DNA from: Alphaproteobacteria bacterium
GTDB taxonomy: Bacteria > Pseudomonadota > Alphaproteobacteria > JAQWUY01
Direction: 5' to 3'
Assembly: GCA_965276005.1 (NCBI GenBank)
Contig: OZ254962.1
Coordinates: 2,676,991-2,740,990 of the forward strand
DNA length: 64,000 nucleotides
The notes beneath the pieces were generated by a model. The model had not been told where the DNA came from, made no database searches, and saw only the letters and a list, made by a program, of their open reading frames with translations. Positions 1,656 through 61,712 of the stretch are shown piece by piece (within the stretch, counting starts at the first letter, position 1; the number at the start of each line of letters is the position of its first letter). The translations under genes and the position numbers were made by a program.

Positions 1656-2968
1656 AAATTGCAATGATTGGTACTGGATATGTGGGTTTGGTGACGGGCG
1701 TGTGTTTGTCGCACTTGGGGCATACGGTAGCTTGTATCGATGCGGATGTGGCAAAAATCGACAATATCAAACGGGGTGTTATACCTATTTATGAAACCGG
1801 TCTAAATCGTTTGTTGCACCAATGTGTACAACAAGGGCGGTTGTCTTTCACAAACGATTTACAACAGGGTATCAAAGGCTGTGCCGCTGTGTTTATTTGC
1901 GTAGGCACCCCGTCCCGATCCGATGGCAGTGCCGATGTATCGGCGGTGTTTGCGGTTGCCGAACGCATCGCTTGCATTGCCGATGATACTATTGTCGTGG
2001 TCGATAAATCCACCGTGCCAGTGGGTACCGCCGATAAAGTCCGCACCCTTATGCAGCAGACAAACCCAGATTTAAAATTTTCTGTGGTGTCGAACCCAGA
2101 ATTTTTACGAGAGGGGGTTGCCATCGAGGATTTTCTCAATCCCGACCGTATTGTCATCGGGGCGGATGATGCACTGGGCAGTACGGTTATGCAGGAAGTA
2201 TATGCCCCGTTTACCCATCGAGATGTACCGTTAATGATGACGGATACCAAATCAGCGGAAATGATAAAATATGCCACCAATGCGTTTTTGGCAACGAAAA
2301 TTACTTTTGCCAATGACTTAGCGGATCTGTGTGAAAAAGTCGGCAGCAACATCACCGATGTGACCAAAGGGTTTGGTATGGATACCCGTATTGGCTACAA
2401 GTTTTTACACCCGGGACCCGGCTATGGGGGCAGTTGTTTCCCCAAAGACACTCGAGCGTTGGTGCATACTTCCAATACACACGGGGTCGACATGGACATT
2501 ATCCGCACGGTGGTAAAAGTCAATGAACACCGCAAAGCCCGCATGGCGGATAAGATTTTACAGCTGATGGGCTCTGATAACAAAAAAGCCACCATATTAG
2601 GTTTGACCTTTAAATCGAACACAGACGATATACGGGAATCGCCGTCTTTAACCATCATCCCCAAATTGTTACAGGCGGGGGTACACATATCCGCATACGA
2701 TCCAGAAGGCATGCACAATGCCAAACAAAACCTAGCGGACATCGATTTTTGTAACAGTGTCGAAGACGCTTGTACAAACACAGATGCGATGGTTATTTTG
2801 ACAGAATGGAGTGCTTTTTCTGTGTTAGATTTTGCTACACTGGCACGGGTAGTGCGGACAAAAACCATTATCGATTTACGCAATTTATACGATTTGGAGC
2901 GTATGCAACAGATTCACAACACACACGGCTTTACATACCACAGTATAGGACGGCAGTCGATTGTGTAA
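1652..2968 (+). CDS. ugd: UDP-glucose/GDP-mannose family 6-dehydrogenase
   Basis: GTGYVG Rossmann motif, KSTVPVG, SNPEFLREG, GYGGSCFPKD catalytic Cys; ATGA overlap with galU. Confidence 0.95.
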   Translation: MKIAMIGTGYVGLVTGVCLSHLGHTVACIDADVAKIDNIKRGVIPIYETGLNRLLHQCVQQGRLSFTNDLQQGIKGCAAVFICVGTPSRSDGSADVSAVFAVAERIACIADDTIVVVDKSTVPVGTADKVRTLMQQTNPDLKFSVVSNPEFLREGVAIEDFLNPDRIVIGADDALGSTVMQEVYAPFTHRDVPLMMTDTKSAEMIKYATNAFLATKITFANDLADLCEKVGSNITDVTKGFGMDTRIGYKFLHPGPGYGGSCFPKDTRALVHTSNTHGVDMDIIRTVVKVNEHRKARMADKILQLMGSDNKKATILGLTFKSNTDDIRESPSLTIIPKLLQAGVHISAYDPEGMHNAKQNLADIDFCNSVEDACTNTDAMVILTEWSAFSVLDFATLARVVRTKTIIDLRNLYDLERMQQIHNTHGFTYHSIGRQSIV

Positions 2969-2995
2969 AAAATACAGAAAGGGCACACCCATACC

Positions 2996-4393
2996 ATGAC
3001 ACCACCCCATTCCCATAGCTTTAATCCCACTATTTTACGACAATACGATATTCGTGGTATTGTGGGCGATACTTTACACGGAGCGGATGCGTACGCTATT
3101 GGCCGTTCATTAGCCACCATTGCTAGCGAACGGCACACCTCCATACGGGCGGTGGTGGGCTATGATGGGCGGGTGTCATCGCCGACACTTGCCAAATATC
3201 TGATAGACGGCTTTACCGATGCCGGCGTGGCGGTGGTCGATGTGGGCTTGTGTCCTACCCCGCTGTTGTATATGGCAGGCAAAGAGTTAAACGCCCCTAT
3301 TGCCGTCATGATAACCGGCAGCCATAACCCGTCCGCATACAATGGCTTTAAAATTATGCTGCAGGGGGCATCGTTTTTTGGTGAAGATATTCAAAAACTG
3401 GGCGATATTGCCAAACGGGGCGATTGGGTATGCCTGCAAAACCCCGCCCCCCCTGTGTACGAACAACAGGATTTTTCTGCATTTTATGTACAACGCATTT
3501 TACAAGATTATAACCCTAAAGCCGTATATACGGTGGTGTGGGATACGGGCAATGGGGCGATGGGGGCGGTGTTACGCCAGCTGACCGACAAAATGGCGGG
3601 GACGCATATTATCATTAACGAAGCCGTAGACGGCACCTTTCCCAACCACCACCCTGACCCAACGGTGGAGAGCAACCTTGAGCAGCTCAAAACCGCTGTA
3701 CAGCGGCACAAGGCGGATATGGGCATTGCTTTTGACGGCGATGGCGATAGGGTGGGGATTGTCGATGCTATGGGGCGGGTGCTGTGGGGGGATGAAATTT
3801 TATGCGTGTTGGTCGAGCCCGTGCTTGCCAAATATCCTAAGGCAAAAATATTGTCTGATGTAAAAGCATCCGATGTGTTGTTCGAACACATTGCTCGTAT
3901 GGGAGGGGTACCGGTGATGGTGGCAACGGGGCATTCGATTGTAAAATCTCGTATGATCGAAGAACAATCGCCATTAGCGGGGGAAATGAGTGCCCATATA
4001 TTCTTTGCCGATGGTTTTTATGGACATGACGATGCCCTGTATGCGGGGGTGCGGTTTATCAATGCCATTTATGCAGGCGGTATGTCTGTGGCACAGGCAA
4101 AAGACGCCTTGCCGCAAATGGTCAATACTCCAGAAATCCGTATCGACATCGATGAGGACAAAAAATTCCCGCTGATTAGGCAACTGGCACAGCACATGCA
4201 GGACACAGGCACAGAGTACTGCGACATCGACGGCGTACGGGTACGCACAGAAAATGGTTGGTGGCTGTGCCGGGCATCGAACACGCAAAACTGTATCACC
4301 ATGCGGTTTGAGGCAAACACGCAGCAAAATTTACAGGCTATGATACAATCCGTGCAAGATATACTGGCACAGTATGGGGTGAGTCGTTGGTGA
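2996..4393 (+). CDS. Phosphomannomutase/phosphoglucomutase
   Basis: YDIRG, TGSHNP phosphoserine loop, FDGDGDR metal loop, GEMSAH. Confidence 0.95.
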   Translation: MTPPHSHSFNPTILRQYDIRGIVGDTLHGADAYAIGRSLATIASERHTSIRAVVGYDGRVSSPTLAKYLIDGFTDAGVAVVDVGLCPTPLLYMAGKELNAPIAVMITGSHNPSAYNGFKIMLQGASFFGEDIQKLGDIAKRGDWVCLQNPAPPVYEQQDFSAFYVQRILQDYNPKAVYTVVWDTGNGAMGAVLRQLTDKMAGTHIIINEAVDGTFPNHHPDPTVESNLEQLKTAVQRHKADMGIAFDGDGDRVGIVDAMGRVLWGDEILCVLVEPVLAKYPKAKILSDVKASDVLFEHIARMGGVPVMVATGHSIVKSRMIEEQSPLAGEMSAHIFFADGFYGHDDALYAGVRFINAIYAGGMSVAQAKDALPQMVNTPEIRIDIDEDKKFPLIRQLAQHMQDTGTEYCDIDGVRVRTENGWWLCRASNTQNCITMRFEANTQQNLQAMIQSVQDILAQYGVSRW

Positions 4394-21920: not shown

Positions 21921-21949
21921 TTGTTTTTTTTTCGCAGGTATGGTATCAT
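21921..21949 (+). promoter_or_regulatory. Putative sigma70 promoter of TPS-like gene 1, containing a T9 tract
   Basis: TTGTTT-N17-TATCAT with an extended TG; homologous to the region at 57517-57547. Confidence 0.45.
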
Positions 21950-22037
21950 GCAGGTCGAAGCGTGCTGTACACGGCATTTAGTGCCTGTAAAATGGTGTTA
22001 AGCTTTGGTTAATTATAAATGCTCAAGGGAGAGGGAG

Positions 22038-25000
22038 ATGACGATGACTAAATCTGTAAAATTTGCTTTATTGGCGGTATCTGCGTTAGGTACTGGCGTA
22101 TTTGCTGGTGGCTTGCCACAAGGTGGCGTGGTACAGGAGGGCTCTGCTAGTATCACATATGCTGGGGGGGGGGGGGGGTATATTTCCCTCGATATAAATC
22201 AGCGATCGGATAAGGCGGTTATCGATTGGCATAGTTTTTCTGTAGGTAAGGGTAACACGGTAAACTTTAACCAACCCAGTAGCGACTCGGCAACTTTGAA
22301 TCGGGTTACGGGGGATTTTACTTCGGAAATTGCTGGACGGATTAACAGTAACGGCAGTGTGTTTTTGGTCAATCCCAATGGCATACGGATTACTGCGGAT
22401 GGTGTTATCGACACGGGCGGTTTTGTTGCCTCGACTCTCGACATCGACAATAATGATTTTTTGAATGGTGAGTATACATTTACGAAAAATGGTAATAGTG
22501 GCGTTGTTTCGAATCGGGGTAGTATTTCGGTCGATGATGGCGGTTTTGTGGCGTTGCTAGGTGGGGCGGTTAAAAACGATGGCATGGTTCGAGCTCTTGT
22601 GGGTAAAGTAGGCTTTGCTGGTGGTGAAAAAATTGTTATGTCGTTTGGCAACAGCGATTTTTTACGGGTCGAAGTGCCTACGGACAAATGGGATACCTTA
22701 ACCGATTCGCAAGGCAATAAAGTTGCGGCTACCCTTGATTTAGGCGGTACCATTGACTCACGGGGTGGATTTATCGATATAACCGTTGCCGATGCCTCCG
22801 ATATTTTGCGACAGACTATTTCGATCGATGGTATTGTATCAGCAAACACTGTGTCTTCCACAGACGGTGTTATATCCATTAGTGGCGGTACAGTGGGGAT
22901 TACCGGCAACGGGCGAATCACTGCTGATGCCGATTATGGCACCGCCGGCACTATTGCCATCGAAGCGGATACCATCGATAGTAGCGGCACGGTTTCGGCT
23001 GTAGCACAAAATGGCACTGGAGGGACGGTTAAAATATCGTTGCAACACGGGGCAAACCTAAACGCTAGTACCCGTTTTGATGTGTCCGGTGGCAACAAGG
23101 GCGGCAGTCTGTCGTTTATTGGTGGTTTAGGCAAACAGGGTACGAAAGTATTAGGTTCTGCGGACTTTAAAGCCGATAGTACGGACGGTAGCGGCGGATA
23201 TGTCGATATTAGTAACAAAGGTGGCTTGGTCGGGCTGTTGTCCGGTACCGTATCCGCATCGGGCAAAACGCAAGGCGGACGGATTCGTCTAGGCGGGGCG
23301 TTTCAAGGGGGCGGGTATGACCCGAAAACCAGCCCACTCGACAAACGCACCCAAGACCTATTTGTTACCCGTTGGGCGGATAATGGCTCCCTTGTTAGTG
23401 CCGGCAAAACTTCGTTAGGCACAGGTGTACGAGTCGATGTTTCATCCGCATCAGGTACAGGCGGCACAGCGATTGTATGGGCAGATCATACCACCAACAA
23501 TTATGCGGCTATCGATGCCACAGGTGCCACTGGGGGCGGAGCGGTGGAAATATCGGGCAAAAAACAGGTCGACAGTTTCGGTTTAAAACGGATTAAGGCA
23601 GGCAACGGGGTTATTTTGCTCGACCCGCAAAATCTGGTTATAGGCAACTGGGGATCCGCAGTGGCACAGGCAAAAAAGATTGCACATGGCGTTAGTGGTG
23701 TTTCATTGAATGATGGAGATGCCTTTGGTAGTAGTGTATCGTTAAGCAGTGATGGGACGAAGTTGGCTGTCGGGGCTGGAGGTGATGACGATGGGGGTAA
23801 AACCAGTAGTGGGGCGGTGTATCTGTACACTGTCGGCGGATCCTCGTGGGGCGAGATAGTAACGCAAGTGGCAAAACTTTCTAATAGCCATGCCAGTGTT
23901 TCTTTGGATAAGAGTGATTGGTTTGGTAGTGGTGGTGTATCGTTAAGCAGTGATGGGACGAAGTTAGCTGTCGGGGTTTACCTTGATGACGATGGAGGTA
24001 ATGGCAAAGGGGCGGTGTATCTGTACACTGTCGGCGGATCCTCGTGGGGCAAGACGGTAACGCAAGCGGCAAAACTTTCTGATAGCCATACCAGTGTTTC
24101 TTTGGATGAGAGTGATTGGTTTGGTAGTGGTGTATCGTTAAGCGGTGATGGGACGAAGTTAGCTGTCGGGGCTGAAGGCGATGACGATGGAGGTAATGGC
24201 AAAGGGGCGGTGTATCTGTACACTGTCGGCGGATTCTCGTGGGGCGAGACGGTAACGCAAGTGGTAAAACTTTCTGATAGCCATACCAGTGTTTCTTTGG
24301 ATAAGAGTGATTGGTTTGGTAGTAGTGTATCGTTAAACGGTGATGGGACGAAGTTAGCTGTCGGAGCTGATGGTGATGACAGTTACAAAGGGGCGGTGTA
24401 TCTGTACATTGTCGGCGGATCCTCGTGGGGCAGTGCGGTAACGCAAGCGGTAAAACTTTCTAATAGTCATGCCAGTGTTTCTTTGGGTAACAACGATTAT
24501 TTTGGTAGTAGTGTATCGTTAAGTGGTGATGGGACGAAGTTAGCTGTCGGGGCGGATGGCGATGACGATGGTGGTTTTAATCGAGGGGCGGTGTATCTGT
24601 ACATTGTCGGCGGTTCTGGTGCCACATGGGGCAGTACGGTAACGCAAGCGGCAAAACTTTCTCATAAACATGCCAGTGTTTCCTTGGATGATTCGGATTA
24701 TTTTGGTGTTGGTGTATCGCTAAGTGGTGATGGGACGAAGTTGGCTGTCGGAGCTAAGTGGGATGACGATAGGGGTAGTAACCAACATGCAAATCGAGGG
24801 GCGGTGTATCTGTACACTATTGGTACTGATGCAGACGATTACAAACAACAATTGCAGGATGGAGATGTAACCCTTGTTGCCAGCAACGATATTACTATAA
24901 ACAGGGCTATAAATGCAGATTCAGGCGGTGGCACATTAACCCTAATCGCCGGGCGGTCGATCAAAATTAACGCTGATGTAAAAGTAAATGGCGGGCTTGT

Positions 25001-26168
25001 ATTAAAAGCCAATGACGCCAGCGATAGTGATTTTATTTTAAGCGAACGGGACACAGGCAAAGCACACATTACCGTTGCCACAGGTAAAACCATATCCGGG
25101 GGCAATGGTAATTTACTTATCAAAATGCTCAAAGGCAGTAGCAGTGCCGCCGCCGAAAAAAAACAAACCGGCAAAATCACCGTGTGGAAAGCGGAGGGTA
25201 AACGGGTCAGCATTGTACATACAGGCATCTCTGATTCGGAAATTGTCATTCTGAGCGGTGGTCGAATCACTTCCAAAAGTACCAGCCTTGCACCGGGAGC
25301 CGTAGGTATCGAATTGGTGGCAGACACATTTACTAACAACTCAGACAGCAATGCTTTATCGGTAACAAGTGGTCGCTACTTGGTATGGACAAAAACCCAT
25401 GCGGATAACACTATGGGGGGCATAATACCACCCTTTAGCCAATATAACCTAGCGTACGACACAACCAAACCAAATTTTCATTCGACTGGTGTGAAAGATA
25501 CCCGATCTGGCTTTGTATACAGCAATGCCAAAAACAGTGGTGGTAATAATGGCGGCGGTAACAACGGCGGTAATAATGGCGATAACAAAGGCAATAATGG
25601 CAATGGCGGAGATTTAGATCTAGGCAACAGCGGTAGCGGCGGCGGCGGTGGCAGTAGCAGTGGCGGTGGTGCAGCGGTTGTCGCACTGGTGGGCACTGGT
25701 GTTGCCGTCAGCATCATGGGCGGTGGCGTAACCGCAGCTGGTGCTGCTGGTGCCGCAGGAGCTGGTGCTGCCGGTGCGGCGGGTGGGGCTGCTGGTGGAG
25801 CAAGCGGGGCTAGTGGTGTCATAGGTGTGCCGCTTGGTCGTATCGACACTATCTTTAACACCAACATATACGCCCAGTTAAATGGTATCGATATGCAGGC
25901 ACTATACCAACCATCGATACAAAAACCTTTTGCATCTGTATTTAATACACCGCAACAGGTTACATACAAAGCCAAATACAAAAGCCAAATACATCGCACA
26001 TACGATATGGCATTGTTGACACATAACATCAAGGCACAAAAAGCGGTACCCCTGTACGAACTGGACGCAGACCTGTACGAAACCTTGAAACGCATATTCG
26101 TACAACAATCGACAGTGACAGACAAAACCGCCCGTACGGATACACAAGCTGTATTATCCGAAACTTAA
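22038..26168 (+). CDS. Filamentous-hemagglutinin (TPS) N-terminal-domain protein with six FG-GAP-like repeats, paralog 1
   Basis: Signal peptide; DWHSFSV...TLNRV...INSNGSVFLVNPNG TPS domain; six FGSxVSLSxDGTKLAVGA repeats (~23700-24830); Gly/Asn linker and hydrophobic Gly/Ala tail. Start set at 22038 after GGGAG. Confidence 0.85.
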   Translation: MTMTKSVKFALLAVSALGTGVFAGGLPQGGVVQEGSASITYAGGGGGYISLDINQRSDKAVIDWHSFSVGKGNTVNFNQPSSDSATLNRVTGDFTSEIAGRINSNGSVFLVNPNGIRITADGVIDTGGFVASTLDIDNNDFLNGEYTFTKNGNSGVVSNRGSISVDDGGFVALLGGAVKNDGMVRALVGKVGFAGGEKIVMSFGNSDFLRVEVPTDKWDTLTDSQGNKVAATLDLGGTIDSRGGFIDITVADASDILRQTISIDGIVSANTVSSTDGVISISGGTVGITGNGRITADADYGTAGTIAIEADTIDSSGTVSAVAQNGTGGTVKISLQHGANLNASTRFDVSGGNKGGSLSFIGGLGKQGTKVLGSADFKADSTDGSGGYVDISNKGGLVGLLSGTVSASGKTQGGRIRLGGAFQGGGYDPKTSPLDKRTQDLFVTRWADNGSLVSAGKTSLGTGVRVDVSSASGTGGTAIVWADHTTNNYAAIDATGATGGGAVEISGKKQVDSFGLKRIKAGNGVILLDPQNLVIGNWGSAVAQAKKIAHGVSGVSLNDGDAFGSSVSLSSDGTKLAVGAGGDDDGGKTSSGAVYLYTVGGSSWGEIVTQVAKLSNSHASVSLDKSDWFGSGGVSLSSDGTKLAVGVYLDDDGGNGKGAVYLYTVGGSSWGKTVTQAAKLSDSHTSVSLDESDWFGSGVSLSGDGTKLAVGAEGDDDGGNGKGAVYLYTVGGFSWGETVTQVVKLSDSHTSVSLDKSDWFGSSVSLNGDGTKLAVGADGDDSYKGAVYLYIVGGSSWGSAVTQAVKLSNSHASVSLGNNDYFGSSVSLSGDGTKLAVGADGDDDGGFNRGAVYLYIVGGSGATWGSTVTQAAKLSHKHASVSLDDSDYFGVGVSLSGDGTKLAVGAKWDDDRGSNQHANRGAVYLYTIGTDADDYKQQLQDGDVTLVASNDITINRAINADSGGGTLTLIAGRSIKINADVKVNGGLVLKANDASDSDFILSERDTGKAHITVATGKTISGGNGNLLIKMLKGSSSAAAEKKQTGKITVWKAEGKRVSIVHTGISDSEIVILSGGRITSKSTSLAPGAVGIELVADTFTNNSDSNALSVTSGRYLVWTKTHADNTMGGIIPPFSQYNLAYDTTKPNFHSTGVKDTRSGFVYSNAKNSGGNNGGGNNGGNNGDNKGNNGNGGDLDLGNSGSGGGGGSSSGGGAAVVALVGTGVAVSIMGGGVTAAGAAGAAGAGAAGAAGGAAGGASGASGVIGVPLGRIDTIFNTNIYAQLNGIDMQALYQPSIQKPFASVFNTPQQVTYKAKYKSQIHRTYDMALLTHNIKAQKAVPLYELDADLYETLKRIFVQQSTVTDKTARTDTQAVLSET
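22164..22178 (+). repeat. G15 homopolymer inside the CDS (candidate phase-variation switch)
   Basis: GCT GGG GGG GGG GGG GGG TAT; currently in frame; absent from paralog 2. Confidence 0.8.
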
Positions 26169-26189: not shown

Positions 26190-26807
26190 CTATTGCACAG
26201 ATTTAATACGGACATTTTGAGCGTATGTGGGGATATATTGTAAACGGATCTTAAAGGCTGTGTGCTGTGCGGGGGGGAGGGCGATGGGTACCGTGTGCGT
26301 TTGGGTGCCAATCGGGGTGTCGTTATCGGTCAGAAATTCCAATACTATAGTAGCCGGCTTGTAATGGGTTTTGTTGCTGGTGTTATATATAATGCCATAT
26401 AGGGTGCTGTTTCGGTTGGCGATAAGCTGTGTTACATGCCCGATCAACGGTGTATTGGGATTGGGCGTATTGTCCGTGTCTTTAAACCATGCGTTCGCTT
26501 GGGTAATACCCAAAGTCTTATATACCAACCGCATTTCAGGTACATATGTTACGATGGTATTCTGTCCGTAAAATCCTATGGCACCTAATGCGACTATGGC
26601 GGTAGGGATGCAAAACATCAAGGTCTTGAAAAACGACCGCAGCATCGACACCGGCGGCGGCGTAAAAATCGGGCTATGGGTATCCGGCGGTGGTGGGGCA
26701 GTATGCACAGACTCGCCCGCCCCAGCCGTATCATCCATTGCCGGGGGAATAGGGGTGGGCTTTATCGTGCCTTTTTTGCGTTTTTTTGCCGTTTTTTCTG
26801 TGTGCAT
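26190..26807 (-). CDS. Single-pass membrane protein, DUF3426/FxLYD-like C-terminal domain
   Basis: Pro-rich linker, one TM segment, then LYGIIYNTS...LEFLTD; divergent from ftsE. Start at 26807 has an AGGA RBS. The longer ORF-track call is antisense overlap with ftsE. Confidence 0.6.
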   Translation of the reverse strand: MHTEKTAKKRKKGTIKPTPIPPAMDDTAGAGESVHTAPPPPDTHSPIFTPPPVSMLRSFFKTLMFCIPTAIVALGAIGFYGQNTIVTYVPEMRLVYKTLGITQANAWFKDTDNTPNPNTPLIGHVTQLIANRNSTLYGIIYNTSNKTHYKPATIVLEFLTDNDTPIGTQTHTVPIALPPAQHTAFKIRLQYIPTYAQNVRIKSVQ

Positions 26808-26891
26808 GTGTCCTGTTATCCCCGTTTTATGTGCCGATTCGTACATATTTTTATATGGACAGCACAGGGATTCCCATGTATATTTTACCTT

Positions 26892-27572
26892 ATGGATACA
26901 AAAAAAGCAATATTCGAATTCGACGAGGTGCGATTGTCTTATGATGGCACGCATGACATATTTTATAATTTGAATATGTGCATATATGCGGGGGGATTTT
27001 ATGTTATCACTGGACCCAGTGGGGCGGGTAAAACTTCGTTGTTGCGGGCGATGATGCTCGATGTGCTGCCTAGTGACGGCACTGTGTCGGTATTTGGCAA
27101 GCCCCACACCCAGTTTACGCACGAAAATGTCGTACAAGCCCGTCAACATATGGGGTTTGTATTTCAAGATTGTAAATTGTTACCGCACTTAAACGCCTAT
27201 GAAAATATCGCCGTTGCCCTGCATATCCGCCACCGACCTAGTCGACATATGCGTAGCAAAGTCGACCAAATTTTACAATGGGTAGGGCTGCAACACTACG
27301 CCGATGCCTATCCCCCGTCCCTATCGGGCGGACAGCAACAGCTGCTGGCACTAGCACGGGCGGTCGTAACCCGTCCTCAGGTTATTGTTGCCGATGAGCC
27401 GACTGGGTCGCTGGATGCCTATGCGGCACATCGTATCTTTCAGCTGTTTAAAATCTTGCATGCACAAGGCACAACCATTGTTATGGTTACCCACGATACG
27501 CAAATGATACAAGACATGCCCTATAACCGTATGCACATTCACGATAAAATTGTACAGGAATACCCCCTATGA
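26892..27572 (+). CDS. ftsE: Cell division ATP-binding protein FtsE
   Basis: GPSGAGKTS, VFQDCKLL, LSGGQQQ, ADEPTGSLD; directly upstream of an FtsX-like permease. Confidence 0.85.
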   Translation: MDTKKAIFEFDEVRLSYDGTHDIFYNLNMCIYAGGFYVITGPSGAGKTSLLRAMMLDVLPSDGTVSVFGKPHTQFTHENVVQARQHMGFVFQDCKLLPHLNAYENIAVALHIRHRPSRHMRSKVDQILQWVGLQHYADAYPPSLSGGQQQLLALARAVVTRPQVIVADEPTGSLDAYAAHRIFQLFKILHAQGTTIVMVTHDTQMIQDMPYNRMHIHDKIVQEYPL

Positions 27573-28489
27573 TACGCACATTTAGCCGCTATATTGTGCC
27601 ATTGCACAAGGGGGGATTCGACAGGGGACTGACGGCTATTATGGCATTTATGGTGGCACTTGCGGTGCTGTTTACTGCTGGGGCGATAACCCTTTCCGAT
27701 TTTATAAACGATTGGAGTAGGGGGATCGAAAACAGTATATCTGTATCCGCTTTATATCCGGACGATATGCGTACACAAACACAACAAAAAATCACCGATA
27801 AAATTAGCCGCATTCTCAACGATACAGAAGGGGTAAAATCCGCCAACATAGTACCCGATGCGGATAAACAGCAATTGCTCTCCCATTGGCTGGGCGATGC
27901 TATCGATAAAAATACTATCGACTTGCCGGTGTTATGGGATGTGACGGTAGACAATGGTTTTGATGTGTCCGCCGTAACAACCGCCATTCAAGCCATATAT
28001 GACGGTGCGGTTATCGACGATTATATGCACTGGAAAAACAGCTTGTTACAATTTGCCAGCGATATGATATTTATAGCTTATGCCTTTGCGGTTGTTGTTG
28101 TGTGTGTGCTGGTGGTGCTGATTTCTCTGTGTGTACGAATCCTTGTTGCCCTGCATATGGAGACACTGCAGGTGCTGACATTGTTGGGGGCATCGGATTC
28201 ATTTATCCTAAAAGATGTGGGGCGGTATGCGTTTTGGGTGGGTTTAAAATCGGCATTTTTCGGGGTGATAGTGTCTGTGGCAGGGGTTGTGATAGGGGGG
28301 CTGTGGTATACGGATATGACCTTTGCCATACTGTTGGACTTTGACAGGGATATGCTGCAACAGATATTTTTGGCAAATATGTTGCGGATATTTGGGCTGT
28401 GTGCTATTATCCTAGCGGTGGCACTGATCAGCCGATGGGGGGCTATTCGCAGTGCCAAAAAATGTATTCGGCAACACTATCGCATATAA
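27569..28489 (+). CDS. ftsX: Cell division permease FtsX
   Basis: TM-periplasmic domain-3TM layout, [16 protein letters not shown]; ATGA overlap with ftsE. Confidence 0.8.
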
Positions 28490-57279: not shown

Positions 57280-57516
57280 GTGCATGCCCTAGTTGGGGGG
57301 AGACTCTAGTTGGGTGTGTGTCCGCATCGGTGTATGTACTAAATCTGAAAAAATGTTTCTTAGCAGGGGCATTTTTTTCGTTTTCTCGTCTTTTTATTTT
57401 CTTACGATATAGCCCTTTTATGGGCACCATTAACAAAAAAGTTGTATTTAAAATACACAATATCAACTAAAAATTGTTTTTTACGCAAAAAAAACGAAAA
57501 TATTTCAAGAATCTGG

Positions 57517-57547
57517 TTTTTTTTTTTTTTCGCAATTATGGTAACAT
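57517..57547 (+). promoter_or_regulatory. Putative promoter of TPS-like gene 2 with a T14 tract
   Basis: T14 (57517-57530) followed by CGCAATTATGGTAACAT, homologous to T9-CGCAGGTATGGTATCAT of gene 1. Confidence 0.45.
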
Positions 57548-57638: not shown

Positions 57639-60600
57639 ATGACGACGAAATCTATAAAATTTGCCTTGTTGGCAATATCTGCACTGGGTGCTGGTGGCAC
57701 TGTGTTTGCGAATACTTTACCACAGGGCGGTGTGGTGCAACAGGGGGCGGCTGGTATCCAGTATAGCGGCGACACCCTGAACATAAATCAGCAATCGGAT
57801 AAAGCGATTATCGATTGGAAAGATTTTTCTGTGGGTAGGGATAACACGGTAAACTTTAACCAACCCAGTAGCGATTCGGCAACCTTAAATCGGGTTACGG
57901 GCGATTTTACTTCGGAAATTGCTGGGCGGATTAACAGTAACGGCAGTGTGTTTTTGGTCAATCCCAATGGCATACGGATTACTGCGGACGGTGTTATCGA
58001 CACGGGCGGTTTTGTCGCCTCGACCCTAGACATAGACAACAACGATTTTTTGAATGGCGATTATACATTTACAAAAAGTGGTAGCAATGGCGTTGTTTCG
58101 AATCGGGGTAGTATTTCGGTCGATGATGGCGGTTTTGTGGCGTTGCTTGGTGGGGCGGTTAAAAACGATGGCACGGTTCGAGCCCTTGTGGGTAAAGTAG
58201 GCTTTGGCGGCGGCGAAAAGATTGTTATGTCATTTGGCAACAACGATTTTTTACGGGTCGAAGTGCCAACGGACACATGGGATAAACTCACCGATTCGCA
58301 AGGCAACAAAGTTTCGGCTACTGTCGATTTAGGCGGTACCATCGACTCACGGGGTGGATTTATCGATATAACCGTTGCCGATGCGTCCGATATTTTACGA
58401 CAAACGATTTCGATCGATGGTGTTGTATCCGCCAATACCGTATCTTCGACAGACGGGGTTATATCTATTAGTGGTGGTACGGTGGGGATTACCAGTAGTG
58501 GGCGAATCACTGCCGATGCGGATTATGGCGACGCCGGCACTATCGCCATCGAGGCGGATTCCATCGATAGCAGCGGTACAGTTTCGGCTGTGGCACAAAA
58601 TGGTATTGGAGGAAAAATTAAAATATCGTTACAACAGGGGGCGAACCTAAACGCTAGTACCCGTTTTGATGTGTCCGGTGGCACCAAAGGCGGCAGCTTG
58701 TCTTTTATTGGCGGATTGTCTGGTAAGGGCGGTACAAAAGTATTAGGCTCTGCAGATTTTAAAGCCGACAGTGCGGGCGGCAACGGCGGTACTATCGACA
58801 TCAGCACCAAAGGCGGCTTGGTGGGGCTGTTGTCCGGTACCGTATCTGCATCGGGCAAAACGCAAGGCGGACGGATTCGTCTAGGTGGGGCGTTTCAAGG
58901 GGGCGGGTATGACCCGAAAATCAGCCAGCTAGATAAACGCACCCAAAATTTATTTGTAACCCGTTGGCGGGATAATAATTCCCTTGTTAGTGCCGGCAAA
59001 ACTTCGTTAGGTACGGGCGTAAGAATCGATGTTTCGTCCCAATCGGGTACAGGCGGTACAGCGATTTTATGGGCGGATCATACCACAAACAATTATGCGG
59101 CTATCGATGCAACCGGTGCCACCGGCGGCGGAGCGGTGGAAATATCGGGCAAAAAACGGGTCGATAGTTTCGGTTTAAACCGTGTTACAGCAGGCAATGG
59201 GGTAATTTTACTCGACCCGAAAAATGTTGTTGTAGGCAAATGGGCATCCCCATTGGGACAAATAAAGAAGATTTCTAACGGTGCTTCTAGTGCTTCTAAT
59301 ATTAATGTTTCATTGAATAAGGATGATTTTTTTGGCAGCAGTATATCATTAAGCGATGATGGGTCGAAGATGGCTGTCGGGGCAGGGGGTACTGATGGCA
59401 ACAAGGGGGCGATATACCTGTATGAAGTTAGCGGATCCACATGGGGCGGTACGATAGTACAAAACAAAAAGATTGCCAATGATACTTCAATCACTGGATA
59501 TGATGGTAAGAATAAAAATCTTGTATTGAAGGCGGGTGAGGGGTTTAGTTTTAGTGTATCGTTAAGTGAAGATGGATCGAAGTTGGCTGTTGGTGCATAT
59601 GTTTATGGTATCAACAAAGGTGCGGTATATCTGTTTACTGTTGGCGGTGCCAAATGGGGAGATACGATAACGGAAAGTAAAGAGATTCTTAAGGATGGTG
59701 CCAATATTATTGTCAATAATAGTAATACTACACTTTCGTTGAGTGATTACGATAATTTTGGTTCGGGCGTATCTTTAAGCGGTGATGGGAATAAGTTGGC
59801 TGTTGGAGCAATGAGACCTGGCAAAGAAGGTAGGGTATATCTGTTTACTATTGGCGGTGTCAAATGGGGCGATACGATAACACAAAAGAAAAATTTTACA
59901 CATGGTAAAAGCGGTGATAATTTTGGTAACAGTGTATCCCTAAGCGATAATGGTGAAAAATTGGCTGTTGGGGCAACTATCTATGAGGATGAAGGGGGAG
60001 GTGCTGATCCTAAGCGTAGAGGTGCCGTGTATCTGTTTACTGTCGACTGGAGTAATGGTAACACAGCAGAAAAACTAAAAATTTCTAATGACCTTCCGGG
60101 TGTTTCGTTGAGTGAGAATGATAATTTTGGTTTTGGCGTATCGTTAAGCAATGATGGAAAAATGTTGGCTGTTGGTGCTATTAACGATGACGCAGGTGAT
60201 TCGGATGTAAATGCAAACAAGGGTGCAGTGTATCTGTATACTGTTACTTGGGGGAATAGTTCTGCAACAATATTGCCAGTAAAAAAGATTACGAACAGCG
60301 ATATTACATTGAAAAAACTTGATACCTTTGGTTCCGCTGTATCTTTAAGTGCCTATGGGACAAAATTAGCTGTGGGGGCGTATGGCGATGATGGTGTTAT
60401 AGGTGATAGTAGTGATGATGATGCGGGGGCTGTGTACTTGATAAATGTACGCCTTGATGTAGACGATTATAAACAACAATTGGAACAAGGTGCACAAGGT
60501 ACACATGTAACCCTTTTTGCCAGCAACGATATTACTATAAACAATGCTATAAATGCAACAAAAGGTAAATTAACCTTAATCGCTGGGCGATCGATCGACA

Positions 60601-61712
60601 TTAACGCCGATGTAAAAGTAAATGGCGGGCTTGTAATAAAAGCCAACGACGCCAGCTCCGATAATACGGGCTTTGTTTTAAACGATCGGGACAATGGCAA
60701 AGCACACATCACCGTTGCCACAGGTAAAACCATATCCGGGGGCAATGATGATTTAATTATCAAAATGCTCAAAGGCAGTAACAGTGCCGCCGACAATAAA
60801 AAACAAACAGGCAAAATCACCGTGTGGAAAGCGGACGGTAAACGGGTCAGCATTGTACATGCAGGCACCACAAAGACGGGCGACACCCCATCCGATTCGG
60901 AAATTGTTATTCGTAGCAATGGCGAAATAAAAGCCACAGGCGACCTAAACAAGGGCGATATAGCCATCGAATTAGCGGCGGACAAATTTACCAACAACTC
61001 AGATAAAGACGCTTTGAGTATCACCGATGATGGTAATACGGACGATAATAAAGGACGGTTCCTAATATGGACAAAAAGTGCTGATGACAATACTTTAAGA
61101 GGTATAACCTCCGATTTTACCCAATACAAAACACATAACAATACCCAGTTTTATTCGAATGATGGTACCAATGATGATCAAAAATATAAATCTGGTTTCC
61201 TATACAGACCCGTATCAAGTGGCGATAGTGGTGGCGGCGGCGGTGGCGGCGGCGGTGCGGCTATCGTATTGATAGGTGCCGGCGTTGCTGTTGTAGCCAT
61301 GGGCGGTATTGGTGGCGGTGCCGCTGCAACAGGTGCCGCAGCAGGTGCCGCCGGTGCTGGAGCAGGCGGAGCAAGTGGTGGATTAGCTGCCCCCGTTGGC
61401 AGTATCGACACCCTGTTTACCACCGGTATATACGCCTATTTAAACGGTATCGATATGCAGGCGATATATCAACCGCCCACACAACCCTCCGTATTTAACA
61501 CCCCCCATAAGGTAACCTACAAAGCCAAAATACATCGCACATACGACATGATCCTGTTGGCACACAACATCAAAGCCCAAAAAGCGGTACCCCTGTACGA
61601 ACTAGACGAACAGCTATACGAAACCTTGAGACGCATATTCGTACAGCAATCGACAACAACAGACAAAACCGCCCGTATGGACAGGCAAAACCAACCGTCC
61701 GAAACTTTGTAG
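57639..61712 (+). CDS. Filamentous-hemagglutinin (TPS) N-terminal-domain protein with six FG-GAP-like repeats, paralog 2
   Basis: N-terminal ~520 aa and C-terminal ~90 aa very similar to paralog 1; six more divergent propeller repeats. Confidence 0.85.
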   Translation: MTTKSIKFALLAISALGAGGTVFANTLPQGGVVQQGAAGIQYSGDTLNINQQSDKAIIDWKDFSVGRDNTVNFNQPSSDSATLNRVTGDFTSEIAGRINSNGSVFLVNPNGIRITADGVIDTGGFVASTLDIDNNDFLNGDYTFTKSGSNGVVSNRGSISVDDGGFVALLGGAVKNDGTVRALVGKVGFGGGEKIVMSFGNNDFLRVEVPTDTWDKLTDSQGNKVSATVDLGGTIDSRGGFIDITVADASDILRQTISIDGVVSANTVSSTDGVISISGGTVGITSSGRITADADYGDAGTIAIEADSIDSSGTVSAVAQNGIGGKIKISLQQGANLNASTRFDVSGGTKGGSLSFIGGLSGKGGTKVLGSADFKADSAGGNGGTIDISTKGGLVGLLSGTVSASGKTQGGRIRLGGAFQGGGYDPKISQLDKRTQNLFVTRWRDNNSLVSAGKTSLGTGVRIDVSSQSGTGGTAILWADHTTNNYAAIDATGATGGGAVEISGKKRVDSFGLNRVTAGNGVILLDPKNVVVGKWASPLGQIKKISNGASSASNINVSLNKDDFFGSSISLSDDGSKMAVGAGGTDGNKGAIYLYEVSGSTWGGTIVQNKKIANDTSITGYDGKNKNLVLKAGEGFSFSVSLSEDGSKLAVGAYVYGINKGAVYLFTVGGAKWGDTITESKEILKDGANIIVNNSNTTLSLSDYDNFGSGVSLSGDGNKLAVGAMRPGKEGRVYLFTIGGVKWGDTITQKKNFTHGKSGDNFGNSVSLSDNGEKLAVGATIYEDEGGGADPKRRGAVYLFTVDWSNGNTAEKLKISNDLPGVSLSENDNFGFGVSLSNDGKMLAVGAINDDAGDSDVNANKGAVYLYTVTWGNSSATILPVKKITNSDITLKKLDTFGSAVSLSAYGTKLAVGAYGDDGVIGDSSDDDAGAVYLINVRLDVDDYKQQLEQGAQGTHVTLFASNDITINNAINATKGKLTLIAGRSIDINADVKVNGGLVIKANDASSDNTGFVLNDRDNGKAHITVATGKTISGGNDDLIIKMLKGSNSAADNKKQTGKITVWKADGKRVSIVHAGTTKTGDTPSDSEIVIRSNGEIKATGDLNKGDIAIELAADKFTNNSDKDALSITDDGNTDDNKGRFLIWTKSADDNTLRGITSDFTQYKTHNNTQFYSNDGTNDDQKYKSGFLYRPVSSGDSGGGGGGGGGAAIVLIGAGVAVVAMGGIGGGAAATGAAAGAAGAGAGGASGGLAAPVGSIDTLFTTGIYAYLNGIDMQAIYQPPTQPSVFNTPHKVTYKAKIHRTYDMILLAHNIKAQKAVPLYELDEQLYETLRRIFVQQSTTTDKTARMDRQNQPSETL

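Follow-up and report, generated by a model that had tools for sequence, protein, structure and literature searches.

How is a large secreted protein exported, and what might hold it on the cell, when its gene lies far from any partner transporter? This question is raised by a 64-kb stretch of an alphaproteobacterial genome (the window), covering positions 2,676,991-2,740,990 of the single 2.97-Mb contig of a metagenome-assembled genome; positions prefixed C1 refer to this contig and unprefixed positions to the window. Two long plus-strand open reading frames (ORFs) in the window, 22038-26168 (P1) and 57639-61712 (P2), encode proteins of 1376 and 1357 amino acids (aa) that carry near their N-termini a two-partner secretion (TPS) domain, as TpsA passengers do. 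As the best overall explanation, held with somewhat more belief than doubt, we propose that P1 and P2 belong to a large family of adhesins or lectins that are exported by one TpsB transporter, are individually switchable, and have a C-terminal retention module in common.

The same modules follow one another in both proteins: a signal peptide, the TPS domain, a stalk, six FG-GAP_2 blades and a beta-rich domain of ~230-250 aa, and then a Gly-rich linker, a hydrophobic Gly/Ala segment of ~20 aa, a Gly/Ala spacer and a tail of ~105 aa. The TPS domain matched PF05860 far above the Pfam cut-off of 33.5 bits (P1, E 2e-30, 106.9 bits; P2, E 7e-33, 115.1 bits), and the sole addition from NCBIfam was TIGR01901, the haemagglutinin N-terminal domain (72 bits against a cut-off of 29.1; E 2e-20 for P1). 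An NPNGI motif is present in both proteins. Exactly six stretches per protein matched FG-GAP_2 (PF14312; P1, E 2e-43; P2, E 1e-34), likewise above the cut-off, and no Pfam family matched across the last ~450 residues of either protein. The signal peptides, read from the translations by eye, have a Lys-containing n-region and a hydrophobic core and end in ...VFA/G or ...VFA/N, and they are conserved across the paralogs described below. Identity between P1 and P2 is ~90% over aa 1-540, 40-60% in the propeller, ~80% over aa 956-1050 and ~80% in the tail. Pfam, NCBIfam and the translations thus confirm the initial annotation in its account of two long ORFs combining a TPS domain, six blades, a hydrophobic segment and a conserved tail, with like ends and divergent propellers, and no barrel family matched, in keeping with its view that an autotransporter beta-barrel signature is lacking. 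The Gly/Asn linker that it assigned to both proteins holds for P1, but P2 has only a 16-aa Ser/Gly stretch at this point.

A genome-wide scan for the missing partner returned one ShlB-type protein in the whole genome (582 aa, POTRA_2 plus ShlB, C1:2277994-2279742), the other Omp85 member being a single BamA, and no ShlB, POTRA_2 or extra Omp85 gene within the window. P1 and P2 lie ~420 kb and ~455 kb, respectively, from this tpsB gene. The gene is preceded by one for a GntR-type regulator, and the cluster continues with a SapC-family gene, an ORF for a 224-aa secreted or lipoprotein-like protein and one tail-bearing tpsA (C1:2271469-2276343), the only such tpsA in the cluster; the corresponding gntR-tpsB-sapC-orf unit of a sister genome has no tpsA attached. 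The products of sapC and of the 224-aa ORF may assist this TPS system as accessory factors. The claim that TpsB is absent therefore stands for the window and fails for the genome, where one TpsB is encoded at an unlinked site, and the picture of two paralogs without a transporter gives way to one of ~50 paralogs with a single unlinked TpsB.

The size of this family became apparent from the genome as a whole, in which 52 TPS-domain matches and 49 ORFs with a P1-type tail were found. Forty-seven of the latter run uninterrupted from TPS domain to tail (1273-4541 aa), and together the 53 family ORFs amount to 127,749 aa, or 12.9% of the genome. Most of them (45/53) are co-oriented with replication, which, according to cumulative GC skew, has its origin at ~1.9 Mb and its terminus at ~0.45 Mb. 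Tail fragments or split family genes, with TPS and tail parts in separate ORFs, were seen at C1:754437-754781, 2372872-2373165, 2409488-2419520 and 2913227-2923915, and are likely frameshifted or decaying members, or homopolymer miscalls. We also noted an 8305-aa TPS protein with 18 blades (C1:980154-1005071) that does not carry the family tail and has a C-x5-C pair ~290 aa from the C-terminal end.

Among the 37 assessable paralogs, the tpsB-linked one included, TPS domains share 76-98% identity, and this identity, along with the low ratio of nonsynonymous to synonymous substitution (dN/dS, or omega) of the domain reported below, fits one transporter common to all paralogs. TpsB proteins serving more than one TpsA are on record (PMC5422565). 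The family thus apparently uses one outer-membrane transporter encoded elsewhere in the genome. In the proposed route, the Sec system would export each protein via its ordinary signal peptide, the conserved TPS domain would be recognised by the genome's sole TpsB, an Omp85 transporter of the FhaC/ShlB type, and the passenger would be threaded to the cell surface and fold there into a beta-helical stalk, a fold that we assign from general knowledge of TpsA proteins. The stalk would bear the six-bladed, integrin-alpha-like FG-GAP propeller, one in P1 and P2 and up to six in other paralogs.

The expansion is confined to a narrow lineage. A TPS domain was found in 91 of 400 genomes sampled evenly from the same class, and a first look gave at most 16 TPS candidates in each of these, against 53 here; first-look candidates are compared because matches in this search were limited to six per genome. 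Across 61 genomes (this one and 60 relatives), the tail gave 52 matches here, 2 in one genome of the same genus and none elsewhere. When a profile of 37 tails was searched against 1.84 billion representative proteins, 18 of the 19 matches came from this genome or from ENA contigs; the match to a fish phosphatase (E 3e-4) was judged spurious. The post-propeller domain was similarly restricted, its homologues all coming from this genome or a few ENA metagenome contigs. In the sister genome there are two TPS genes and one unlinked TpsB; both TPS genes encode the tail, and both proteins keep the order of poly-Gly stretch, hydrophobic segment, Gly/Ala spacer and tail. A maximum-likelihood tree built on the first 500 aa placed the tpsB-linked paralog with the sister genome's 1967-aa protein (support 95/98) and the sister's 6366-aa protein outside the clade of all remaining paralogs here (support 96/100). 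This placement indicates that two ancestral genes became ~50 by a burst in one lineage (to ~48 here). ENA metagenome proteins paired one-to-one with particular paralogs in the tree, indicating that the burst is older than the divergence of those strains. A few kilobases from its tpsB (L017:13486-15974), the sister genome has three tandem genes for signal-peptide-bearing ankyrin-repeat proteins; these eukaryote-like proteins suggest a host-associated lifestyle, and the source alphaproteobacterium, which is uncultured, is probably host-associated.

The architecture was described at the outset as unusual. Its combination of TPS and FG-GAP_2 domains is not, being found also in Sinorhizobium, Sphingomonas, Rhodoferax, Nitrospirae and others, but the post-propeller domain, hydrophobic segment and tail are lineage-specific.

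We computed dN/dS among 11 single-propeller paralogs. Omega was 0.15 for the TPS domain (dS 0.52), 0.17 for the N-terminal stalk (dS 0.48), 0.42 for the propeller (dS 1.03), 0.39 for the post-propeller domain (dS 0.78), 0.17 for the hydrophobic segment and spacer (dS 0.79) and 0.29 for the tail (dS 0.59). Purifying selection acts on every module, and the paralogs did not arise by recent copying. The propeller evolves faster than the secretion end and the tail, and its dS is twice as high. These values bear on the reading that the family consists mostly of decaying repeats, either assembly artefacts or pseudogenising duplicates with no current function. The frameshifts in five paralogs with poly-G tracts, the two or three split genes and the origin of the contig from metagenome assembly are as this reading would have it, but 47 ORFs remain uninterrupted, dS of ~0.5-1.0 with omega of 0.15-0.42 argues against collapsed or duplicated assembly copies, and the P2 locus recurs with the same flanks in an independent assembly; we consider decay hardly credible as a general account.

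Sliding-window comparison indicated that the modules have been exchanged. The nearest paralog of P2 is C1:2395989 over nucleotides (nt) 1-2900 of the ORF (80-97%) and C1:923538 over nt 3000-3840 (91-99%), with C1:720176 nearest in the last window; the switch between the first two falls at the boundary between propeller and post-propeller domain. For P1, C1:2655000 is nearest over nt 1-1320 (93-98%, to ~aa 440) and other donors follow; its blades are closest to those of long multi-propeller paralogs. P1 and P2 are recombination mosaics of different paralogs. In an independent metagenome assembly, P2 has a positional orthologue that lies next to the same EamA genes, and the flanks of the two loci are 97-99% identical, with identity within the gene ranging from 80 to 100% in discrete patches. 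A search for donors of these strain-differing patches was suggestive, not clean. In that second strain, an inverse-autotransporter (IAT_beta) gene, a further type V surface protein, lies ~2 kb downstream of the P2 orthologue (L020:7597-9267). The suggestion that these are modular proteins with exchangeable heads is accordingly upheld: conserved ends (omega 0.15 and 0.29) flank a faster propeller (0.42), and modules have moved between paralogs. The repertoire would diversify through recombination between paralogs together with amplification of blades.

Homology among paralogs extends 150-250 nt upstream of the gene and ends at the stop codon, indicating that the duplicated unit is promoter plus gene, with no accessory or immunity gene. 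The genes downstream differ, an ftsE-like ABC ATPase gene following P1 and an EamA gene following P2. These limits bear directly on the idea that the proteins are effectors, in particular CdiA-like agents of contact-dependent inhibition or other polymorphic toxins in which the tail is the delivered toxin. There is a superficial likeness to orphan cdiA-CT modules, in that the TpsA proteins are large and end in a distinct domain, and many copies have no linked transporter. Here, however, the tail is conserved and the head variable, the reverse of contact-dependent inhibition logic; no family member has a VENN or (Q/E)LYN motif, no conserved downstream immunity ORF accompanies the paralogs, and no toxin family matched. 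We therefore regard the effector or toxin role raised by the initial annotation as unlikely, and delivery of the tail as a toxin as very improbable.

The propeller itself is built on a strict plan. A blade hidden Markov model (HMM) derived from P1 and iterated over the family counted 6, 12, 18, 24, 30 or 36 blades in each member, and in the rare cases of 7 or 37 the N-terminal closing strand had been scored as an additional blade; counts in multiples of six indicate that the unit is a six-bladed propeller. In an AlphaFold model of P1 aa ~527-1376, 24 strands formed six four-stranded blades, with the N-terminal strand completing the last blade, and the predicted local distance difference test score (pLDDT) was 75-96 over the propeller and the next ~230-aa beta-rich domain. 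The best PDB matches of the P1 propeller were integrin alpha propellers (Foldseek; 4wk4_A, E 9e-13), and superposition on these was poor (template modelling score ~0.49 on the target, root-mean-square deviation 8 Å), as would be expected when six blades are fitted to seven. The only Pfam match of the post-propeller domain, with E values up to 10 allowed, was DUF7305, at E 0.009 and under the cut-off of that family.

Blades 1-5 of P1 are mutually 68-85% identical and those of P2 31-50%. At the DNA level, P1 contains a tandem repeat (5.4 copies, 85% matches, 23724-24782) with a period of 195 bp, which replaces the ~183 bp read initially, and no such repeat was found in P2. The near-identity of the P1 blades indicates that this head was recently amplified or homogenised, and near-identical blades would imply repeated equivalent sites, as in multivalent propeller lectins. 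Loops of the GDDDGG type are present in 5 of the 6 P1 blades, with the last Asp of the DxDxDGxxD Ca2+-loop consensus absent. The propeller would serve as the variable ligand-binding head, and is probably a multivalent Ca2+-dependent lectin or adhesin.

Homopolymer tracts at the 5' ends of the genes suggest a means of switching. The G tract of P1 lies within its 5' coding region, and G12-G17 tracts occur at the same codon in nine paralogs; in 4 of these (G12 and three G15) the signal peptide and body are in frame, and in 5 (G13, three G16 and G17) they are frameshifted with respect to each other. About one-third of the genome's G/C tracts of at least 12 nt are found at the 5' ends of this family. 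Alignment of P1 and P2 placed a T tract at the exact 5' edge of a ~115-120-nt upstream element common to paralogs, and T13-T15 tracts are present at about -105 to -150 in many others. The P1 element includes a promoter-like TGTACA-16-TAAAAT (21966-21993), a weak consensus match only, and scans for promoters and terminators yielded no more than weak consensus matches, about as often as in shuffled sequence. The tract patterns match those of classical contingency loci, making these genes candidate loci of this kind, and individual genes are probably switched by homopolymer tracts: the G tract in the 5' coding region in the case of P1, and the T tract at the upstream element in the case of P2.

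What might keep these proteins on the cell is suggested by their C-terminal ends. The hydrophobic segment (P1 aa 1212-1231, P2 aa 1207-1225) occurs in each of the 49 ORFs with a tail as well as in the sister genome, and the order of segment, spacer and tail is constant in all paralogs and the sister species, with a Gly/Ala spacer of 0 to ~70 aa. In the tail, 12 positions are invariant and 18 nearly so, with aromatic residues at many of them. No credible match to it was found in Pfam, NCBIfam or PDB sequences, supporting its initial description as an uncharacterised domain; Tap-RNA_bind, which matched 10 of 37 tails with a best E of only 0.0056, and a dephospho-CoA kinase (E 0.08) were taken as chance. 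AlphaFold gave a low-confidence hint of a beta-hairpin followed by two helices, with a polar and disordered end. This prediction, together with the lack of any barrel family match, led us to reject a classical or trimeric autotransporter (type Va/Vc), and the spacer and ~105-aa domain that follow the segment, with no basic cluster, led us to reject LPXTG, PEP-CTERM and GlyGly-CTERM sorting signals.

The C-terminal unit of linker, hydrophobic segment, spacer and tail is most likely a retention device that holds the passenger on the cell. Cysteine makes up 0.07% of family residues and, in mature regions, occurs mostly as close pairs (C-x2-C to C-x6-C), a pattern tolerated by type V passengers. 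The mature P1 and P2 proteins have no Cys; in 3-4 members a C-x4-C or C-x6-C pair directly follows the hydrophobic segment, a hint that this region sees an oxidising compartment. The 16-aa linker of P2, judged from its length, would be long enough to span a barrel and too short for the periplasm. In HMW1 and HxuA of Haemophilus influenzae, a small C-terminal domain is thought to be periplasmic and to lock the protein in the TpsB pore (PMC5422565). Given the Cys pairing, the short P2 linker and this precedent, we favour a periplasmic retention module, in which the linker and hydrophobic segment would sit in or beside the TpsB barrel and the tail would act as a periplasmic stopper. By analogy with the Haemophilus proteins this is a possible arrangement, though one to which we give less than an even chance. 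A more specific and doubtful version is a new type Vb anchor, in which TpsB, as an Omp85 protein with a lateral seam, would keep the small-residue helix in its barrel or release it sideways into the outer membrane with the tail as periplasmic stopper, so that, given the near-identical TPS domains, one transporter could display any of ~50 heads, switched by tracts and reshuffled by recombination.

The hydrophobic segment could also be read as a Sec stop-transfer sequence, giving a type I inner-membrane protein with a cytoplasmic tail whose N-terminal part is threaded through TpsB to form an envelope-spanning tether, possibly released later by intramembrane proteolysis. The 19-residue Kyte-Doolittle mean of the segment is 1.96 in P1 and 2.26 in P2 (1.3-2.4 among paralogs, median 1.96) and exceeds the usual threshold of 1.6 in 48/49 paralogs, the segment is conserved in every paralog and the sister species, the tail is mildly basic (median pI 8.9, net charge +2), and Gly/Ala-rich transmembrane segments are, as is generally known, typical rhomboid substrates. 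On the Hessa scale, however, the sum is marginal (median +1.8 kcal/mol across paralogs), the segment lacks a flanking Lys/Arg cluster and runs into an uncharged Gly/Ala spacer of 5-70 aa instead, and close Cys pairs stand right after the segment in some members. Moreover, the P2 linker cannot bridge the periplasm and outer membrane unless the confidently folded post-propeller domain stays unfolded. We consider an inner-membrane anchor rather unlikely.

Alternatively, the whole chain might pass through TpsB as a fully released exoprotein, with segment and tail inserting into a host or target membrane in the manner of a cytolysin or self-associating into a surface coat or matrix. Release is common among TpsA proteins, and those of the ShlA/ExlA type insert into membranes (general knowledge and PMC5422565); the Cys-poor, Cys-paired pattern also continues past the hydrophobic segment, and the Gly/Ala-rich stretches may resemble glycine-zipper or aggregation-prone segments. 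This would, however, require ~50 conserved membrane-attack modules, each on a different head and with no immunity or protection gene nearby; there is no similarity to the C-terminal regions of ShlA/ExlA or to any pore-former model, and the tail, in its low-confidence model, has no amphipathic beta signature of membrane inserters. Release, too, seems to us rather unlikely.

Several points weigh against the explanation that we prefer, that of switchable adhesins exported by one TpsB and retained by their C-terminal ends. The proteins are known here from sequence and predicted structure alone, and the adhesin or lectin function is derived from fold class alone. A single TpsB is a bottleneck if every exported TpsA stays plugged in the transporter, and a hydrophobic helix is no obvious fit for a water-filled barrel; a segment with a Kyte-Doolittle mean of ~2.0-2.3 could instead stop transfer in SecYEG at the inner membrane. 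The label of stopper is an analogy, and the disulfide loop that defines the HMW1/HxuA anchor is absent from P1 and P2. The tail has no confident AlphaFold fold, either in context (pLDDT 22-37) or alone (37 sequences; mean 50, predicted template modelling score 0.19). With respect to switching, the frameshifted poly-G states could be homopolymer errors in assembly, and the T14 tract has the same length at the orthologous P2 locus of the second strain, two strains being compared.

The coordinates of P1, P2 and their modules, the upstream elements and the tpsB cluster are collected in Table 1.

Table 1. Features of P1, P2 and the unlinked tpsB cluster (window positions unless prefixed)
Feature	Position	Strand	Details
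P1 upstream element, common with P2	21924-22037	+	T9 tract 21924-21932; GGGAG ribosome-binding site
P1 gene, tail-bearing TpsA	22038-26168	+	1376 aa from ATG 22038; probable start ATG 22044, giving 1374 aa
P1 Sec signal peptide, predicted	22038-22106	+	MTMTKSVKFALLAVSALGTGVFA/GG, from translation
P1 TPS domain with NPNGI motif	22113-22907	+	PF05860, TIGR01901
P1 G15 tract	22164-22178	+	codes Gly43-47, in frame (ON); candidate slipped-strand phase switch
P1 N-terminal stalk extension, putative beta-helix	22908-23645	+	~90% identity to P2; omega 0.17; conserved among paralogs
P1 six-bladed FG-GAP_2 beta-propeller	23646-24824	+	Pfam, blade HMM, AlphaFold
P1 post-propeller beta-rich domain, lineage-specific	24825-25523	+	pLDDT 75-94; no Pfam family
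P1 Gly/Asn/Ser low-complexity linker, 49 aa	25524-25670	+	pLDDT <30
P1 hydrophobic Gly/Ala/Val segment, conserved	25671-25730	+	AAVVALVGTGVAVSIMGGGV; Kyte-Doolittle 1.96, Hessa-scale sum +2.3
P1 Gly/Ala spacer, 32 aa	25731-25826	+	
P1 C-terminal tail, conserved, 113 aa	25827-26165	+	genus-restricted
P2 upstream element, homologous to that of P1	57517-57638	+	T14 tract 57517-57530; A8 tract 57487-57494
P2 gene, tail-bearing TpsA, 1357 aa	57639-61712	+	positional orthologue in independent metagenome assembly
P2 signal peptide	57639-57710	+	
P2 TPS domain	57717-58496	+	
P2 stalk	58497-59237	+	
P2 six-bladed FG-GAP_2 propeller	59238-60449	+	diverged blades
P2 post-propeller domain	60450-61208	+	nearest-paralog switch at ~nt 2900-3000 of ORF
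P2 Ser/Gly linker, 16 aa	61209-61256	+	
P2 hydrophobic segment	61257-61313	+	AAIVLIGAGVAVVAMGGIG
P2 Gly/Ala spacer	61314-61388	+	
P2 C-terminal tail, conserved, 107 aa	61389-61709	+	
gntR-tpsB-sapC-orf224 cluster	C1:2276514-2280547; sister genome L017:6461-10617		kept in both species of the genus

Of the two candidate start codons of P1, the second is the likely one, based on Shine-Dalgarno spacing and on agreement with P2 and with a 1374-aa database protein. Downstream of P1, a 325-aa minus-strand ORF with no family match (26190-27167) overlaps the 5' part of the ftsE-like ABC ATPase ORF (26676-27572, plus strand); an ftsX-like gene (27569-28489) comes next. The ATPase ORF has a long N-terminal extension that is unlikely to be translated, and one of the two overlapping calls is probably spurious.

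Accounts of two-partner secretion usually pair a transporter with one linked passenger or a few. One TpsB apparently serving ~50 dispersed passengers, one-eighth of the genome, would be an extreme case for TpsB specificity and capacity, and the C-terminal module, confined to this genus, may represent a new way for TpsA proteins to remain cell-bound. The strict six-blade units, some of them freshly amplified, should be useful for studies of propeller evolution and for multivalent lectin design. Collectively, the data suggest that the family is a switchable, recombining repertoire of adhesins, and the candidate contingency loci and mosaic recombination would extend pathogen-style antigenic or adhesive variation to symbionts of this kind. 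If the anchor proposed above holds true, it would amount to a programmable surface-variation system on 13% of a symbiont-sized genome. Literature on TPS proteins with FG-GAP repeats, symbiont hemagglutinins, six-bladed FG-GAP propellers and phase-variable TpsA paralogs contained no description of this family; the genus-restricted C-terminal module, the quantisation in six blades, the number of passengers per transporter (~50:1) and the size of the family appear to be undescribed in the literature searched.

Among known systems, HMW1 and HxuA resemble P1 and P2 as TpsA passengers with a small C-terminal domain after the functional region, and as surface-retained adhesins or binding proteins. 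Their anchor, however, is 20-66 aa long and forms a disulfide loop from two conserved Cys, which P1 and P2 do not have, and the ~105-aa tail of the present family is unrelated in sequence and comes after a hydrophobic Gly/Ala segment and a spacer; the C-terminal module would be analogous in function, not homologous, to the HMW1/HxuA anchor. HMW1 also has its own linked HMW1B and HMW1C, whereas the single TpsB of this genome would have ~50 passengers to export. FhaB/FHA of Bordetella, with its transporter FhaC, has in common with the family the Sec signal peptide, the TPS domain and a beta-helical shaft, as well as a C-terminal region that is kept in the cell while secretion proceeds and determines what becomes of the mature protein; a second TpsA is likewise served by FhaC (PMC5422565). 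The FhaB prodomain differs from the tail described here in being ~1200 aa long, degraded and devoid of a hydrophobic segment, FHA has no propeller head, and the FhaB locus is a classical linked operon.

Closest in the head are uncharacterised proteins combining TPS and FG-GAP_2 (and in some cases YDG/MBG) domains from Sinorhizobium medicae, Sphingomonas, Rhodoferax and Nitrospirae metagenome-assembled genomes, annotated as 'filamentous hemagglutinin N-terminal domain-containing' or 'YDG domain-containing'; over the propeller the identity is 35-40%. YDG-like repeats are present in the tpsB-linked paralog here and in the sister-genome copy. The TPS plus FG-GAP_2 proteins examined have neither the hydrophobic segment (maximum 19-residue Kyte-Doolittle mean <1.6) nor the post-propeller domain or tail. 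The integrin alpha propeller, which gave the best Foldseek matches, likewise has FG-GAP repeats with DDDG-type loops, but has seven blades and a beta-subunit partner, in contrast with six blades and no such partner here, where the Ca2+-loop consensus is partly kept.

Finally, the family recalls the phase-variable adhesin repertoires of pathogens, such as Neisseria Opa, Helicobacter Hop/SabA and the promoter repeats of HMW1/2, in which simple-repeat tracts lie in the 5' coding region or promoter and paralogs recombine. The likeness lies in the many paralogs, the repeat tracts and the mutual recombination. What sets the present family apart is that its members are type Vb passengers with propeller arrays, that it comprises ~50 genes and 12.9% of the genome, and that switching is here proposed from the tracts.

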